A stretch of 4,503 nucleotides of DNA from a virus (Duplodnaviria > Heunggongvirae > Uroviricota > Caudoviricetes): the IMG/VR virus record IMGVR_UViG_2698536435_000005. One strand, written 5' to 3'. A program made the position numbers and the translations under genes. The notes under the pieces were generated by a model. It saw only the letters and a program-made list of their open reading frames with translations, was not told the DNA's origin and did no database searches. Below, in pieces: positions 26 to 4,503 of the stretch (positions are counted from its first letter, which is position 1; every line of letters begins with the position of its first letter).

Positions 26-379
26 TTAAAAAAAGAACAAATGGTAGTGTCCGCTATTGCCAGTACACCTCAATTGCTCTGCGGCTTCGCTCAGAGCTGG
101 CGTATGTTCCCGGCCTACTGATTCACACAGGTAATCAACGAAACCGGACACCAGTTTTCGTTCGCGAGGCGTGATCGCCCCACCGACCGGAGTCCAGTAA
201 TCGAAACCCAGTTGCAGGAGTTTGAAAAAACGCTTGTGGAATGCGTAGTTACACACACGCTTAAAGTCTGCGTGTATCCACTCACCTATTTTGATTTGAT
301 GCAGAAAATCGCAACTCTCCGGCGTCGCCGGGAGAAGTAATCCGGAAGAGGTTTGTTTGACCAGTTGTATATGTGCCAT
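26..379 (-). CDS. hypothetical protein (117 aa from ATG at 379; the track ORF extends to a TTG at 421). Second gene of a two-gene cassette, Cys/His-rich, no family recognised
   Basis: Open frame ending at TAA 26-28. The ATG at 377-379 is preceded by GGAG with a 7-nt spacer (minus strand CCGGAGAAAGCCG-ATG). The alternative TTG at 421 overlaps the upstream stop as TTGA but has no comparable SD. Start choice is uncertain. Confidence 0.5.
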   Translation of the reverse strand: MAHIQLVKQTSSGLLLPATPESCDFLHQIKIGEWIHADFKRVCNYAFHKRFFKLLQLGFDYWTPVGGAITPRERKLVSGFVDYLCESVGREHTPALSEAAEQLRCTGNSGHYHLFFF

Positions 380-417
380 CGGCTTTCTCCGGTGGCACGG
401 TGTTACACAGCAGGAGT

Positions 418-705
418 TCAATCCTGCTCAAGATTGTAGATGAGTTTATTCTTCAGCAAAAGCAGAAAACCAGCCTTAAAACCAATCTCTTTCAAAACCC
501 GTAATGATGTGACAAATTCGTCCTCACGCAAAATAAAACCGTCCGTCAGAAGTCCATTACAAAAATAAAATAACACAGCACCGCTCTTCCTTTGTTGAGA
601 TTGCAAACATCTAATGCGGCAATGGCTGACAATCGCTCCATTCTCAACGCGCACAGCATAGAGGCCATTTTCACTAAAAATTTCACGCAATTCTTCGATT
701 TTCAT
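418..705 (-). CDS. hypothetical protein (95 aa), first gene of the two-gene cassette downstream of hok
   Basis: ATG at 703-705 preceded by GGAAGGA with a ~8-nt spacer; TGA stop at 418-420 overlaps the next start region. Sits downstream of a sigma70-like promoter at 787-814. No family recognised from sequence. Confidence 0.55.
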   Translation of the reverse strand: MKIEELREIFSENGLYAVRVENGAIVSHCRIRCLQSQQRKSGAVLFYFCNGLLTDGFILREDEFVTSLRVLKEIGFKAGFLLLLKNKLIYNLEQD

Positions 706-786
706 CTTCAGAATCCTTCCAGATAAATAGCTCTCCCCTGTTCGGGGTCCATCCCTCTTCTCCCTGCGCGCTACTTAAGTGAGTCG

Positions 787-814
787 ATTCTATCTGCGAA
801 GGTGCGCGAATCAA
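787..814 (-). promoter_or_regulatory. sigma70-like promoter for the downstream two-gene cassette (-35 TTGATT, 16-nt spacer, -10 TAGAAT)
   Basis: Minus-strand TTGATT (revcomp of + 809-814) and TAGAAT (revcomp of + 787-792), just past the hok terminator and ~80 nt upstream of the ATG at 705. Uses the same two hexamers as the hok promoter. Confidence 0.4.
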
Positions 815-825
815 ATTCACCGGAA

Positions 826-877
826 ATAAACAACAAAAAACCCGCCGAAACGCTGAGAGATCACAGCGATGGGCGGG
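826..877 (-). terminator. rho-independent terminator at the 3' end of the hok transcript
   Basis: Minus-strand RNA CCCGCC-CAU-CGCUG-UGAUCUCU-CAGCG-UUUC-GGCGGG (nested GC-rich stems, + 841-877) followed directly by UUUUUUGUUGUUUAUUU (+ 826-840). Confidence 0.6.
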
Positions 878-881
878 TTAA

Positions 882-946
882 GTGCGGGTGCGTTGAGGAT
901 GCCTGACACATCAGAGGTGGGCGGGGATGGGATCAGCTCCCCGCCC
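882..946 (-). promoter_or_regulatory. hok mRNA 3' fold-back region: stem-loop plus an fbi-like element complementary to the mRNA 5' end
   Basis: Perfect 9-bp stem GGGCGGGGA / TCCCCGCCC with a 10-nt loop (919-946), 9 nt after the hok stop. Plus-strand 886-898 GGGTGCGTTGAGG matches the minus-strand leader start GGGTGCTTGAGGC (+ 1268-1280) apart from one extra base, so the mRNA 3' region can pair with its own 5' end as in the fbi/tac arrangement of plasmid R1 hok mRNA. Confidence 0.45.
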
Positions 947-954
947 GGTCACTC

Positions 955-1110
955 TTACTTCCTGGATTCGTAGTCTACGAAGACAGCGACCTCCGTCTGG
1001 CCGGTTCGGATTCGTACCTCACAGAGGTCTTTCCTCGTTACCAGTGCCGTCACTATGACGGTTAAACAGATGACGATCAGGGCGATTAACATCGCCTTTT
1101 GCTGCTTCAT
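955..1110 (-). CDS. hokD: Hok/Gef-family type I toxin (51 aa): MKQQKAMLIALIVICLTVIVTALVTRKDLCEVRIRTGQTEVAVFVDYESRK
   Basis: From memory, near-identical over the first ~45 residues to E. coli HokD (RelF) and Gef (HokC), with a single TM helix and the conserved RKDLCE motif. ATG at 1108-1110 is preceded by AAGGAG with a 9-nt spacer; TAA at 955-957. The frame is open in-frame upstream to an ATG at 1167 (70-aa track ORF), which I read as a mok-like frame fused in-frame to hok. Confidence 0.85.
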   Translation of the reverse strand: MKQQKAMLIALIVICLTVIVTALVTRKDLCEVRIRTGQTEVAVFVDYESRK

Positions 1111-1114
1111 AGCC

Positions 1115-1200
1115 TGCTTCTCCTTGCCTTTCGGCATGTAAGAGGCTAACCTACATGTGCAAAGCATGAAATTGGCCTCAGATTAATGTTAAGCGTCTTG
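1115..1200 (+). ncRNA. candidate Sok-like antisense RNA region (approximate coordinates, not resolved)
   Basis: Inference only. In hok/sok loci Sok is transcribed antisense across the mok start region; here the mok-like ATG (1167) and its GAGG SD lie ~114 nt into the predicted hok mRNA. I could not pin a convincing plus-strand -35/-10 pair or terminator. Confidence 0.25.
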
Positions 1201-1286
1201 CCGGACGCGTAATGTTAACTGGGGCTTTTCTCTATCTGCCTTTTGGTGTTCATGCCTGAAGCAGATAGCCTCAAGCACCCGCAGTC

Positions 1287-1316
1287 ATTCTACTTACCTC
1301 GCCAATATGAAATCAA
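1287..1316 (-). promoter_or_regulatory. hok promoter (-35 TTGATT, 18-nt spacer, -10 TAGAAT)
   Basis: Minus-strand TTGATT (revcomp of + 1311-1316) and TAGAAT (revcomp of + 1287-1292), ~7 nt upstream of GGGTGCTTGAGGCTATCTGC. That leader start resembles, from memory, the 5' end of R1 hok mRNA (GGCGCUUGAGGCUUUCUGCC). Lies 22 nt downstream of the QueH-like stop. Confidence 0.5.
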
Positions 1317-1337
1317 TCAGAAAGGTGCCCCATAAAA

Positions 1338-2024
1338 TCACTCCTTCTCTTCTTTACCGTAGTGGAGTTGACCAATTTTGATAAGAGGGCGTCCCTGAGA
1401 TTTGCGGTGTAGATTGGTATCGCGCAGAGAATACACACAGCCACAATATTCCTGCTGATAGAATTTTTCGCGCTTGCTGATTTCAATCATACGGGACGAG
1501 CCGCCCTGCTTGCGCCAGTTATAATCCCAGTACACCATGCCCGGATAATGCGCGACGGCTCGCCGCCCACAGTCGTTAACCTGCTGCATATTTTTCCAGC
1601 GTGAAATGCCCAGTGAACTGCTGATCACACTGAAACCATTTTCAGCGGCGTACAGCGCTGTCCGCTCAAAACGCATGTCAAAACACATGGTGCAACGGAT
1701 CCCTCGTTCGGGCTCCCATTCCATTCCTTTGGCTCGTTCAAACCAGTTGTCTGTGTCGTAATCAGCATCAATAAACGGCACGCCGTGTTGTTCAGCAAAG
1801 CGAATATTCTCATCCTTACGAATTAAATACTCTTTCTGAGGATGAATGTTCGGGTTGTAGAAAAAGATGGTGTAGTCGATTCCCGAGGCCTGAAGCGCCT
1901 CCATCACCTCACCGGAACATGGAGCACAGCAAGAGTGCAGTAGTAGTTTGTTTGCCCCGTTTGGGAGCTCCAATTTGGGCCGTTTGAAATCAGCAACTGT
2001 CATAAATATGTTTATTGGGGTCAT
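1338..2024 (-). CDS. queH: QueH-like protein (DUF208, putative epoxyqueuosine reductase family), 228 aa, Cys-rich
   Basis: N-terminal [11 protein letters not shown] motif, which I recall as the DUF208/QueH signature, plus further Cys pairs (RCTMCF, YCGCV). TGA stop at 1338-1340. Neither the first ATG (2024) nor the in-frame ATG eight codons later has a recognisable SD, so the start is uncertain. Family call is from motif recall, not alignment. Confidence 0.6.
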
Positions 2025-2171
2025 AAAAATATCAAAGAGTGTAGCATTAGAACGGGGCTATCGGAAACAGATGTGTGACTGCTCCCCGCCCTTTCGGGTG
2101 GTCTCCTGATGATTTGAGGGTGCAGAAATCCCTCCGGTTAAGGATTAAATTTTTAACAGTGCTAAATTTAA

Positions 2172-2585
2172 TTATTCAGTTCTGGATTTTGTCGCCCTGC
2201 GTATCCGCGCTTTCGCGTTACGCTCAATCTGTATCAGCTTTTCTATATTTCTCCGCCTTTCCTGTTCCTCCTGGCGCAATAGCCTTACATCATCTGCCAG
2301 TCTGGTTTCTCTTTTTGCCACAGAGAGCATCCAGTCAAACGGCTCCACAACCGCACCGCAGATTTTACAGCGGACCTGACGCTCTTTTTCGTCAACCCGT
2401 ACAGAGGCGTGATGGCAATATGGTCTTTCCGATGGCTCATAAAGAAAATTAACCTGATTACGAGGGTTATCCTCTTTTACCGGAAATAAAACAATATTGC
2501 TTAACTCATCTTCTGGTTTTATTTCCATGCTCCTCTCCTTTGATGCGAATGCCAGCGGTAATTGAAGCCTGATAGCTAATTTCAT
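2172..2585 (-). CDS. hypothetical small protein with a putative Zn-ribbon (C-H-H...C-x-x-C) and a basic, coiled-coil-like C-terminus; alternative start at 2528 gives 119 aa
   Basis: The ATG at 2583-2585 abuts the upstream TGA (TGAATG). The in-frame ATG at 2526-2528 has a stronger RBS (AAGGAG, 6-nt spacer). Motif PYCHHASVRVDEKERQVRCKICG; C-terminus rich in R/K/E/Q. Confidence 0.55.
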   Translation of the reverse strand: MKLAIRLQLPLAFASKERSMEIKPEDELSNIVLFPVKEDNPRNQVNFLYEPSERPYCHHASVRVDEKERQVRCKICGAVVEPFDWMLSVAKRETRLADDVRLLRQEEQERRRNIEKLIQIERNAKARIRRATKSRTE

Positions 2586-3008
2586 TCACAGTATCGCCTC
2601 CTGAAAATTACCCTGATAGAAAGCCAGTACACGCTGCATAGCTTCGCTCTTCCGGCACTCGCGACAGATTATATTCAGGCGCCTGTCGTAGCGGCGTATT
2701 TCTCCGTCAGGTAATGACCAGATAAGGTCCGGATCAACAACAACCGGTTTCCTCACCTTTACTCTCGAGAGTTTTTTGCGGGCGCTTTGCCAGTCCTTGC
2801 GAGCCTGTTCAGACGGGAATAAGCCGTAGCCAGAATTATATACATCACCACTTGCGACCAGTTCTATGCATAAGCGACCGACAGACGCACGACTGATACC
2901 TGTTTCATCTGACAACTGCCGAATCGTGACCCGACCGTCCTGATGCACGAGTTCCACAATTCGCGTCTTCAGTTCTTCCCGCTGTTCGGGAGTAAAAGGT
3001 TTCGCCAT
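2586..3008 (-). CDS. ren: HTH protein, probably Ren-like (lambda ren family), 140 aa
   Basis: Sits immediately after the P-equivalent gene, as ren does in lambda. The C-terminal motif CRECRKSEAMQRVLAFY resembles what I recall of lambda Ren (KECRQSAAMKRVLAVY), and the N-terminus has a helix-turn-helix-like segment (TIRQLSDETGISRASVGRL). AGGAGG 4 nt upstream of the ATG at 3008. Confidence 0.6.
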   Translation of the reverse strand: MAKPFTPEQREELKTRIVELVHQDGRVTIRQLSDETGISRASVGRLCIELVASGDVYNSGYGLFPSEQARKDWQSARKKLSRVKVRKPVVVDPDLIWSLPDGEIRRYDRRLNIICRECRKSEAMQRVLAFYQGNFQEAIL

Positions 3009-3022
3009 AAATCCTCCTGAAA

Positions 3023-3769
3023 CTACTTAACAACCCTCGAATGGCTAACATTCGGACGCCAGCTCTCCCAGTTAAAATTCACCCAGCGCCCGCCGTTCAT
3101 GACCATGCGATCCATCACCCGCTCGCCGAGCAATGTTTTCATCACCTCATAGTTCAGGTTTGTCAGCATCCCCACGCTGCGCATCGACGCTGTCCGGCGA
3201 TCAACAATCTGGTGCAGCACCACCTGCTCGTTTTTCGTCTCGCGCTGAATGCCAATTTCATCAAGAACCAGCAGATCCACTTCGCACAGCTCCCGCAAAA
3301 ATTTTTCGCCTGACTGCCCGTCGTCATAGCTGGCGTGCAGGGCGCTCATAACATCAGCCACGGTAACCACAATCACTGTCTGACCGTCTTTCAGCAGGCG
3401 ATTCCCGATAGCTGCCGCTAAGTGATTCTTCCCGGTACCAGGTTTTCCGCTGAACGCAAAATTTGTACACCCGGTCATCAGTTCATCGGCGATGGATTTC
3501 GCCTGGCTTAACGCGTATCGCTGGCCGTCGTTCTGCACCTGGTAATTCGCAAACGAGCATTTACGGTGCAACGGCTGGATGCCTGAGCGATTCAGAATTT
3601 TTTCCACCCGCAACTGGCGATTCAGGCGGTTGATCTCCTCGCTACGTTTCTGGCCTTCAGCAAGTTGCCACTCGCGCCACTCCGCTACCGTTCTGAATGG
3701 GGCGGTTACATGTGGCGGGGTCAGTCGGCGGATGCGTTCCAGAACGCCGCCTGTCGCAATATTTTTCAT
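3023..3769 (-). CDS. dnaC: DnaC-family AAA+ helicase loader (phage P-equivalent replication protein), 248 aa
   Basis: Clear similarity to E. coli DnaC along the whole length, from memory: Walker A FSGKPGTGKNHLAAAIG, Walker B DLLVLDEIG, and RSGIQPLH...CSFANY and MLTNLNYEVM...LGERVMDRM blocks. ATG at 3767-3769 follows the upstream TAA (3776-3778) by two codons. Confidence 0.9.
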   Translation of the reverse strand: MKNIATGGVLERIRRLTPPHVTAPFRTVAEWREWQLAEGQKRSEEINRLNRQLRVEKILNRSGIQPLHRKCSFANYQVQNDGQRYALSQAKSIADELMTGCTNFAFSGKPGTGKNHLAAAIGNRLLKDGQTVIVVTVADVMSALHASYDDGQSGEKFLRELCEVDLLVLDEIGIQRETKNEQVVLHQIVDRRTASMRSVGMLTNLNYEVMKTLLGERVMDRMVMNGGRWVNFNWESWRPNVSHSRVVK

Positions 3770-4123
3770 GGTCCGTTACCCCCTGAAGCCTGGCGGGATC
3801 GCACTGTCCGGCAACGAGACGGTGTTAACCTGTCGGAGCAACGTCTCAGGCCGAACACCTTTCGGCGCGAACAGGCCCTGGTATTCATTGGCGATGCTGT
3901 GTCGAATCACCTGCTCAGGTGTAAAACCCTGCTGACGGAATTTTTCCAGTTCCCGTATCGCCCCGTTAGCGCCCTGCTCCGTTCGAATCGGTTTTCGCAA
4001 TGCCTGTCTGAACCGGACCCACTCATGCCAGAGTGTTTCCGGCAACCAATCGGGCAGCTCAATAGCCTCCGGCTCGAATTTTTTAGACGCTCGTTTTTGG
4101 CGAGGGGGAGATCAGTATTTAGA

Positions 4124-4174
4124 TCTTCCTCTTCCTCTTCCTCTTCCTCTTCCTCTTCCTCTTCCTCTTCCTCT
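4124..4174. repeat. perfect hexanucleotide tandem repeat (TCTTCC)8 + TCT on plus, (GAAGAG)n on minus; encodes Glu16 in minus frame B
   Basis: Read directly: 8.5 identical units with no interruptions, 51 bp. Confidence 0.95.
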
Positions 4175-4198
4175 GGTAACGCTTTTTGATCCGTTTGT

Positions 4199-4217
4199 GT
4201 AACGCTGGCAGCGTTAC
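4199..4217. repeat. perfect 19-bp palindrome GTAACGCTG-G-CAGCGTTAC (dyad GTAACGC-N5-GCGTTAC), with an extra direct half-site GTAACGC at 4176-4182
   Basis: Read directly. Lies inside the initiator gene just upstream (minus sense) of the hexamer repeat. Candidate protein-binding site (iteron or operator). Confidence 0.5.
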
Positions 4218-4406
4218 CTTTTCGTTTCAGTTCGCGTATTTTTGTTACTCGCTCGTTTGTAACCGCCCGTTTTTTTTAGAGCTTTTTCCGTTATGACGTT
4301 CAAAGTTAGGTAGAGAAAGCCCTCCGTCATTTTCGACCAGCCATCCAACCTGAATTAACGCATCAGCAAAACCAGACATAAAAGTGATGCGATCTATTGC
4401 ACTTTT

Positions 4407-4427
4407 TGTAACGCCGCGAGCGTTACA
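4407..4427. repeat. second copy of the same dyad: TGTAACGC-CGCGA-GCGTTACA
   Basis: Read directly. Shares the GTAACGC-N5-GCGTTAC half-sites and spacing with the 4199-4217 palindrome, ~210 bp away, inside the initiator N-terminal coding segment. Confidence 0.5.
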
Positions 4428-4503
4428 ATCTGCATTACCGTCTGGATTTGCCCCTATATTTCCAGACATCTGTTATCACTTAACCCATTACAAGCCCGCT
4501 GCC

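Follow-up and report, generated by a model that had tools for sequence, protein, structure and literature searches.

An intact queH gene on the minus strand of the window

The DNA analyzed here, referred to as the window, is a 4,503-nucleotide stretch of a viral sequence record (IMG/VR record IMGVR_UViG_2698536435_000005; Caudoviricetes), and the gene of interest is queH, which encodes a member of the epoxyqueuosine reductase family QueH within a piece of a lambdoid prophage. An open reading frame (ORF) of 228 codons extends from position 2024 to position 1338 on the minus strand and contains the motif HSCCAPCS. This motif and additional cysteine pairs had been pointed out in an earlier annotation made from the sequence alone (here called the original prediction), and all of them are present in the ORF product, the further pairs being RCTMC and YCGC. 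The cysteines of the product are C32, C33, C36, C111, C114, C194, and C196, plus the nonconserved C161. The following features were assigned to the queH region:

1338..2003, minus strand: queH coding sequence, 221 amino acids plus stop codon, assigned from the PF02677 match, the coding sequence (CDS) annotated by the Prokaryotic Genome Annotation Pipeline (PGAP), the start of orthologs, and the match to Thermotoga maritima QueH
2004..2024, minus strand: seven-codon in-frame extension MTPINIF up to the first ATG, probably 5′ leader and not coding
2038..2046, minus strand: TGCTACACT, an extended −10-like element (TGn + TACACT), 43 nt upstream of ATG-2003
2061..2066, minus strand: TTCCGA, a weak −35-like hexamer, with a 17-nt spacer to TACACT
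1332..2074, minus strand: minimal queH cassette (approximately 741 bp) comprising the promoter-like element, an A/U-rich leader, the gene, and 6 nt past the stop codon

The upstream gene ends at position 2172, leaving an intergenic gap of 147 bp to ATG-2024, as described originally, and of 168 bp to ATG-2003. Position 2024 had been taken as the start in the original prediction and also by the annotators of the phage HannyBb, but not by PGAP. In Escherichia coli FDAARGOS_944, which carries a 100% identical copy of the gene, the PGAP CDS WP_012421537.1 comprises 221 amino acids and begins at the second ATG, which corresponds to window position 2003. The chromosomal orthologs begin at the position of ATG-2003 as well (e.g., MTIAKFERPKL...) and have no ATG where 2024 stands. 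ATG-2024 was seen in the examined phage and prophage copies only and is missing from the Enterobacter, Scandinavium, and Kluyvera orthologs; it is located just 13 nt past the −10 element. Because PGAP uses ATG-2003 and the orthologs keep this codon while lacking ATG-2024, the true start of queH is probably ATG-2003, with a coding sequence spanning positions 1338 to 2003, rather than the start proposed initially.

The gene product matches the QueH family along its full length

The assignment to the DUF208/QueH family made in the original prediction was borne out by a hidden Markov model (HMM) search against Pfam. The only Pfam match of the queH ORF was PF02677 (QueH, formerly DUF208; IPR003828), with a score of 220.6 bits and an E value of 1.9e-65. 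With a cutoff (gathering score) of 23.5, this match is far beyond chance, and it is full-length, since ORF residues 27 to 201 align to profile positions 1 to 174 of 175. The T. maritima QueH structure 7lc5 was likewise matched by sequence (E value of 5e-22).

Residue conservation was evaluated in two alignments of 35 and 40 diverse homologs, respectively, extending down to approximately 36% identity. Six cysteines, C32, C33, C111, C114, C194, and C196, are invariant in both alignments and are all kept here, as are the other residues invariant in both (N59, E65, R69, E106, R110, K144, Q191, G195, and S199). In the first alignment, C36 occurs in 90% or more of the sequences, with T. maritima as the exception, and it is invariant in the second, in which R118 is invariant too; both residues are kept in the phage-borne protein. 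The conserved set of an N-terminal CCxPC, a central RCxxC, and a YCGC near the C terminus is present in the ORF product in its entirety. The cysteines expected to serve as metal ligands are consequently intact, and the alignment that includes the structurally characterized QueH reveals no altered invariant residue, in agreement with what had been anticipated.

The AlphaFold2 model of the ORF product has a mean predicted local distance difference test (pLDDT) value of 94.5 and a predicted template modeling (pTM) score of 0.90. In a Foldseek comparison, the predicted model matched 7lc5 and 9d86 with a template modeling (TM) score of 0.92 (target normalized) and a root mean square deviation of 1.3 Å over 179 columns, whereas the next-best matches, TtuA and TilS, which have the generic adenine-nucleotide-alpha-hydrolase fold, reached TM scores of approximately 0.4 to 0.5 only.

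Members of the QueH family are expected to bind a [4Fe-4S] cluster with an adjacent iron, and to our knowledge the T. maritima enzyme is the only QueH with a solved structure. The predicted fold and the cysteine clusters CC..., CxxC, and CGC are common to T. maritima QueH (PDB 7lc5, 7lc7, and 9deu) and the phage-borne protein, which share approximately 30% identity. The two differ in location, the T. maritima gene residing on the chromosome and the gene studied here on a phage, and in a basic C-terminal tail of approximately 25 residues, which is a feature of the phage-borne QueH and its gammaproteobacterial orthologs in comparison to T. maritima QueH. They differ further at the position of Cys36, where T. 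maritima QueH has Asp13. As cysteine is the family norm at this position, it is the phage-borne protein that is typical and the crystallized T. maritima enzyme that is exceptional. According to the titles of the PDB entries, Asp13 and Cys9 of T. maritima QueH were mutated for later crystal structures, 9dco (D13N) and 9d86 (C9S), respectively. Taken together, the ORF is an intact, full-length member of the QueH family.

queH is a second enzyme next to queG in E. coli

In a set of 5,426 complete E. coli genomes, queH was found in 995 (approximately 18%, or about a fifth), and the gene is full-length in 985 of these 995. PGAP names the E. coli copies "epoxyqueuosine reductase QueH." Phage or prophage queH is neither rare nor unannotated in this species. 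The queG gene was present in all 5,426 genomes, so that queH in E. coli is always a second, nonhomologous enzyme for the same annotated reaction, the conversion of epoxyqueuosine (oQ) to queuosine (Q). The two enzymes differ in that QueG is cobalamin dependent, as stated in a passage of PMC4646009 citing Frey et al. 1988, whereas QueH is presented in a passage of PMC6461909 as the cobamide-independent alternative.

According to the original prediction, enterobacteria normally use QueG. This is true of E. coli, where QueG proved to be encoded in every genome of the set, but it cannot be extended to the order, as chromosomal QueH orthologs are widespread in Enterobacterales. Specifically, proteins with 77 to 92% amino acid identity are encoded on the chromosomes of Enterobacter, Kluyvera, Erwinia, Serratia, Pectobacterium, Rahnella, Proteus, and Providencia. 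In Erwinia, Serratia, Rahnella/Ewingella, and Pectobacterium, queH is found in genus-conserved synteny and hence behaves like a housekeeping gene, which is why a QueG-only description fails for the order as a whole. Similarly, the view that a phage-borne QueH is unexpected can be kept with respect to its redundancy with queG but not with respect to rarity or lack of recognition, given its frequency and its PGAP name.

Phage queH points to a single capture from an Enterobacteriaceae chromosome

Outside phages, the gene is most closely related to copies on the chromosomes of Enterobacter, Scandinavium, and Kluyvera, with 87 to 92% amino acid identity and 78 to 85% nucleotide identity. The genes of Kluyvera ascorbata, Scandinavium sp., and Enterobacter hormaechei, which fall within this range of amino acid identity, share the start codon with the phage gene. 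Their neighbors are ordinary metabolic and regulatory genes without phage character (LysR regulators, dehydrogenases, glycogen genes, and others), whereas the copy studied here is located between phage replication genes and hok/sok. Trees were calculated by neighbor joining from codon (nucleotide) and protein alignments, without bootstrap. In both trees, the phage and prophage copies group without exception in a single clade, which lies inside the Enterobacteriaceae chromosomal genes and has the Kluyvera/Scandinavium/E. hormaechei chromosomal genes as its sister. One phage clade nested within chromosomal genes argues for a single capture followed by spread among lambdoid phages, and the sequence relationships thus point to a nonphage, chromosomal Enterobacteriaceae origin of phage queH. 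Multiple independent captures were rejected since the phage copies are monophyletic in these trees, again without bootstrap.

In E. hormaechei B56, an ORF for a tyrosine-recombinase-like protein of 234 amino acids (locus positions 7181 to 7885) is located directly upstream of the chromosomal queH, and the contexts of chromosomal queH vary among Enterobacter species. On these grounds, Enterobacter queH may sit on small mobile islands, which are a possible stepping stone to phage capture.

The boundaries of the transferred segment are sharp. The upstream junction lies exactly at position 2074 in 61 of 80 IMG/VR loci and also in HannyBb and in prophages of Escherichia albertii, E. coli sequence type 131 (ST131), and O157; homology to chromosomal queH stops at 2067 for E. 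hormaechei and at 2051 for Scandinavium. The downstream junction is at 1332 to 1334 in the minimal cases, i.e., HannyBb, E. coli A10, and the chromosomal orthologs, and at 1175 or approximately 873 elsewhere. The related phage vB_EcoS-666R9 has both flanks in common with the window and carries other genes instead of the queH cassette. The cassette is not marked by its composition, because the GC content of the queH region, 0.46 to 0.53 in a composition profile, is not distinct from that of the surroundings.

The putative promoter TTCCGA-17-TGCTACACT (positions 2066 to 2038) lies within the cassette at a distance of 8 nt from its 2074 junction, and TTCCGA is common to the E. hormaechei chromosomal copy. 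The sequence TGCTACA[C/A]T occurs at −40 to −44 relative to the conserved ATG in all four phage and prophage flanks compared and likewise in seven chromosomal orthologs, the flanks of which are otherwise unalignable; in K. ascorbata, Scandinavium sp., and E. hormaechei, the same extended −10-like element is present at −43. Variants of the −10 sequence (TGCTATATT, TGCTACCCT, and others) are found at −33 to −44 in further genera, including Sodalis, Acerihabitans, Pectobacterium, and others. We infer from this conservation that the TGCTACACT element is the native queH promoter, which was captured with the gene. The suggestion in the original prediction that queH may be expressed independently is therefore in line with a conserved, captured promoter-like element. 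The predicted leader is A/U-rich and unstructured (−0.9 kcal/mol, no better than shuffled sequence), which agrees with Shine-Dalgarno-independent initiation. An Rfam scan with a permissive E value gave sok as the sole match; riboswitches or other RNAs were not detected in the vicinity of queH. Just outside the junction, at 2086 to 2101, there is a GC-rich hairpin (CCGCCC-TTTC-GGGTGG) in sequence common to the queH-less phage vB_EcoS-666R9; as it lacks a T-run on the minus strand, it is no obvious terminator for the rightward transcript.

The ratio of nonsynonymous to synonymous substitution rates (dN/dS) among the phage and prophage copies was 0.025 to 0.054 at dS values of 0.15 to 0.45, and that between chromosomal orthologs was 0.027 to 0.034. 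The dN to the Kluyvera ortholog was 0.045 for the phage copy versus 0.030 to 0.033, i.e., only slightly higher, and the few substitutions specific to the phage clade are conservative. Such dN/dS values indicate strong purifying selection while the gene has been in the phage pool. Together with the unchanged invariant residues, they speak against a decaying passenger as well as against a change of function. A pseudogene or hitchhiker was rejected on the basis of dN/dS, and neofunctionalization was rejected because no family-invariant residue is altered.

Proposed function of phage-borne QueH

We propose, with a probability of roughly 0.7, that the window carries a functional queH gene which was captured once together with its promoter-like element and which circulates in lambdoid prophages as a moron for the vitamin B12 (cobalamin)-independent conversion of oQ to Q. 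The enzyme, a cobalamin-independent iron-sulfur protein, would reduce oQ to Q at position 34 of tRNA-Asp, tRNA-Asn, tRNA-His, and tRNA-Tyr. The 741-bp cassette would have been taken once from a chromosome of the Kluyvera/Scandinavium/Enterobacter clade, its own promoter-like element included, and would have landed in a cargo slot behind the replication module of Rac/Qin-type lambdoid phages, from which recombination would now carry queH between prophages of E. coli, Shigella, and E. albertii. In the lysogen, expression would be driven by the gene's own promoter, and after induction read-through from the early rightward operon would contribute. The benefit would be that Q-tRNA can be completed independently of B12, both in the lysogen and while the phage grows, and queH would represent a moron or auxiliary gene that acts on the modification state of the host tRNA.

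The components of this proposal carry different weight. We consider it probable that the protein is an active QueH. E. coli cannot synthesize cobalamin de novo. With a cobalamin-requiring QueG in such a host, B12-independent finishing of Q is the most likely benefit; that a B12-related benefit is the reason why queH is kept has a little less than an even chance. The comprehensive statement that a functional QueH is supplied by lambdoid prophages in E. coli and Shigella and uncouples the completion of Q-tRNA from the B12 supply is put forward tentatively.

With regard to phage morons, i.e., lysogenic-conversion cargo as defined in a passage of PMC3594210, queH is likewise an extra gene of foreign origin that has sharp junctions between conserved phage modules and is missing from the sister phage vB_EcoS-666R9. 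It also has a predicted promoter-like element of its own; a flanking terminator is lacking, the cassette ending 6 nt past the stop codon.

Several observations weigh against the proposed function. A simple sigma-70 consensus scan of positions 900 to 2700 called no promoter upstream of queH, since the −35 of the promoter-like element is poor, and a scan of the same region for intrinsic terminators found none flanking queH on either strand. With no promoter called and no terminator, queH falls short of the textbook definition of a moron, which comprises a promoter plus a terminator. Reading of the sequence revealed no Shine-Dalgarno-like sequence ahead of ATG-2024 or ATG-2003, as the original prediction had indicated; the chromosomal genes of K. 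ascorbata, Scandinavium sp., and E. hormaechei likewise have none. Furthermore, an NCBIfam HMM scan of the QueH protein matched no model, so that the PGAP name must rest on another rule, and the ligand geometry at Cys36 is extrapolated from T. maritima QueH, which has an aspartate there. Literature and database searches gave no record of activity, expression, or phenotype for phage queH, nor did the literature examined establish that having Q instead of oQ affects the fitness of E. coli.

Beneficiary of queH and alternative explanations

The state of this prophage copy was analyzed at both ends of the window. Positions 4443 to 4503 represent the end of the insertion sequence (IS) IS2 of the IS3 family, which interrupts a ydaU-like replication gene. 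This end, which occurs in 3,161 of 5,426 E. coli genomes, is 100% identical to copies annotated as "IS3-like element IS2 family transposase." The remaining part of the ydaU-like gene shows two frame changes relative to the intact protein of 262 amino acids from FDAARGOS_944, and its GAG/GAA hexanucleotide repeat (approximately positions 4125 to 4175) comprises 16 Glu codons, compared with 6 in the intact gene. This copy of the ydaU-like gene is a pseudogene. At the opposite end, prophage homology begins only at window position 73, and a truncated DUF1367 gene covers profile positions 1 to 102 of 198 and then ends in unrelated residues. In Shigella flexneri SFBU1023, the corresponding flank contains an IS3-family transposase gene (locus positions 10057 to 10875), followed by IS66. 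The window is a 4.4-kb IS-bounded prophage remnant, which is most similar to Shigella and no longer able to replicate as a phage. Within this remnant, queH, hok/sok, and several small genes are still intact. The preservation of queH in a nonreplicative remnant fits, without proving, a benefit to the host cell.

Alternatively, QueH could serve the phage itself, in that transcription from the early operon would top up Q for the translation of late genes under B12 shortage, with any gain for the lysogen being incidental. The orientation of queH, which in each of the contexts seen is that of the replication and nin/Q genes, the lack of a terminator between queH and the upstream genes, and the presence of queH on HannyBb, a complete isolated temperate phage in which it is listed as a "hypothetical protein," are in favor of this explanation. 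We nevertheless consider it unlikely: the cassette has retained its chromosomal promoter-like element, pointing to expression independent of the phage program; queH is intact in an IS-bounded remnant, where selection can act at the level of the host alone; and a single lytic cycle is presumably short for a change in the modification of the tRNA pool to matter.

In another alternative, queH is a neutral hitchhiker without function that would have been dragged along by the hok/sok addiction module. As a type I toxin-antitoxin system, hok/sok can stabilize linked DNA, and queH is often inherited together with it as a block spanning positions 873 to 2074, left junctions at 873 to 876 being present in 44 of 80 IMG/VR loci. 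A hitchhiker is nonetheless very improbable, because the low dN/dS over dS values of up to 0.45, which contradict a very recent spread, amounts to a long purging of amino acid changes, because the ORF has remained full-length in all but 10 of the 995 genomes, and because queH also occurs without an adjoining hok in O157:H7 Z1768, in E. coli A10, and in the chromosomal orthologs.

The weakest alternative, raised already in the original prediction, is a different substrate, either an epoxy-7-deazaguanine in phage or host DNA (for modification or antirestriction) or another epoxide; although DNA modification by phages via the preQ0/7-deazaguanine pathway is known (PMC6884629) and the slot holds restriction-modification cargo in other prophages, it has next to no likelihood in view of the unchanged family-invariant residues, the few and conservative phage-clade substitutions, a dN/dS as low as that of housekeeping orthologs with a dN to Kluyvera only slightly raised, the lack of a PADLOC defense system match (at an E value of ≤0.01, no family for QueH or the unknown neighbors and only weak helix-turn-helix noise for the DUF977 protein), and the lack of the partner genes. 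Concerning the latter, neither a gene for a DpdA/tRNA-guanine transglycosylase (TGT)-like transglycosylase nor genes for QueC, QueD, QueE, or FolE are annotated in the 40-kb FDAARGOS_944 prophage or in HannyBb, a result that refers to annotation only and not to an HMM scan of all ORFs. A role in DNA modification was rejected on this ground.

Comparison with known phage systems and implications of phage-borne QueH

The 7-deazaguanine (preQ0, G+) clusters of phages combine DpdA/TGT-like transglycosylases with FolE, QueD, QueE, and QueC and act on DNA (PMC6884629). These clusters and the locus described here have in common that queuosine-pathway genes are carried by phages; here, QueH occurs alone and is, by annotation, a finishing enzyme at the tRNA level. 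The survey by Hutinet et al. 2019 (PMC6884629) reported no QueA, QueG, or QueH homologs in the viruses analyzed, and a literature search for QueH or DUF208 in combination with phage or prophage retrieved no description of a phage-borne QueH; one apparent match, PMC6206895, was due to the author name Quehenberger. PHROG 3217, which matches the queH product, is labeled "unknown function"; its profile begins at Met41 and does not include the CCAPC motif, which is the likely reason why phage pipelines call queH hypothetical. The QueH function is thus missed by phage-centered resources, as exemplified by PHROG 3217, the HannyBb annotation, and the 2019 survey with no viral QueH. Neither the enzyme family nor its structure or role is new, PGAP names the gene correctly, and the sequence has no unusual features; it is the setting that has been under-noticed.

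If the proposed function is correct, no enzyme of the tRNA-specific section of the queuosine pathway would have been described from a phage before. Compared with K-12, roughly every fifth E. coli strain would then have Q instead of oQ in its tRNA where the niche is poor in B12 or where the B12 receptor BtuB has been lost, which could in turn affect NAU/NAC decoding and fitness. An active QueH would mean that a common prophage cargo alters a universal tRNA modification step in an important group of pathogens including ST131, O157:H7, avian pathogenic E. coli (APEC), and Shigella and frees this step from an externally supplied vitamin. Completion of tRNA modification would in that case join the traits of lysogenic conversion, and the K-12-based rule that "E. 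coli needs B12 to make Q" would fail for approximately 18% of strains.

Prophage setting and neighboring genes

Window positions 73 to 4443 are a piece of a Rac/Qin-type lambdoid prophage. Based on Pfam, NCBIfam, and PHROGs assignments, the genes are as follows:

3776 onwards (3776-4442), minus strand: ydaU-like replication initiator
3023-3769, minus strand: ydaV, DnaC-like
2586-3008, minus strand: DUF977 protein, PHROGs label "Ren-like exclusion protein"
2172-2585, minus strand: ORF of 137 amino acids, weak TFIIB-type zinc-ribbon match, phrog_1621
1338-2003, minus strand: queH
~955-1300, minus strand: hok/sok type I toxin-antitoxin system, intact (Pfam HOK_GEF, E value of 9.8e-23; Rfam RF01794, sok)
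418-705, minus strand: ORF of 95 amino acids, conserved in phages, phrog_340
26-421, minus strand: DUF1367 gene, NinB-like label

The queH slot follows the replication module and precedes hok/sok, the sok RNA being recognized at 1105 to 1280 with 117 bits (Rfam RF01794). The original prediction had placed queH in a lambdoid prophage accessory region beside hok, which the Pfam HOK_GEF and Rfam sok matches support, and more precisely between ren and hok. The latter description is right for hok; "ren," however, corresponds to the DUF977 ("Ren-like") gene, which does not directly adjoin queH but is separated from it by the zinc-ribbon ORF of 137 amino acids. This ORF and that of 95 amino acids, both of which are conserved in phages, lie on either side of the cargo slot.

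The 100% identical queH copy of FDAARGOS_944 belongs to a complete lambdoid prophage adjoining ybhA/modCBA/gal. The same slot is occupied by queH in a Qin-like prophage of ST131, in a Rac-like prophage of E. coli A10, in the complete genome of HannyBb, and in a prophage of O157:H7 Z1768, in which hok is replaced by an NgoMIV-type restriction-modification pair. In this prophage, genes for an NgoMIV-family endonuclease and a cytosine methyltransferase (locus positions 3806 to 5816) are located directly downstream of queH. The presence of a restriction-modification pair in place of hok/sok characterizes the slot as a general cargo hotspot.

In IMG/VR, 215 viral contigs encode a relative, and the best 80 of the 215 are all at least 99% identical to the protein studied here. 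Within the phage collection, further QueH matches were obtained in the records CAKLQH020000001.1, CAKLQF020000001.1, and OR844989.1, which are named "Acinetobacter phage MD-2021a" (328 to 379 kb) and "Staphylococcus phage SA 1306 Kay" (283 kb) and resemble misfiled bacterial sequence more than genuine cases of a phage-borne QueH. QueH matches at 32 to 50% identity were found in 18 short "Bacteriophage sp." contigs from human feces.

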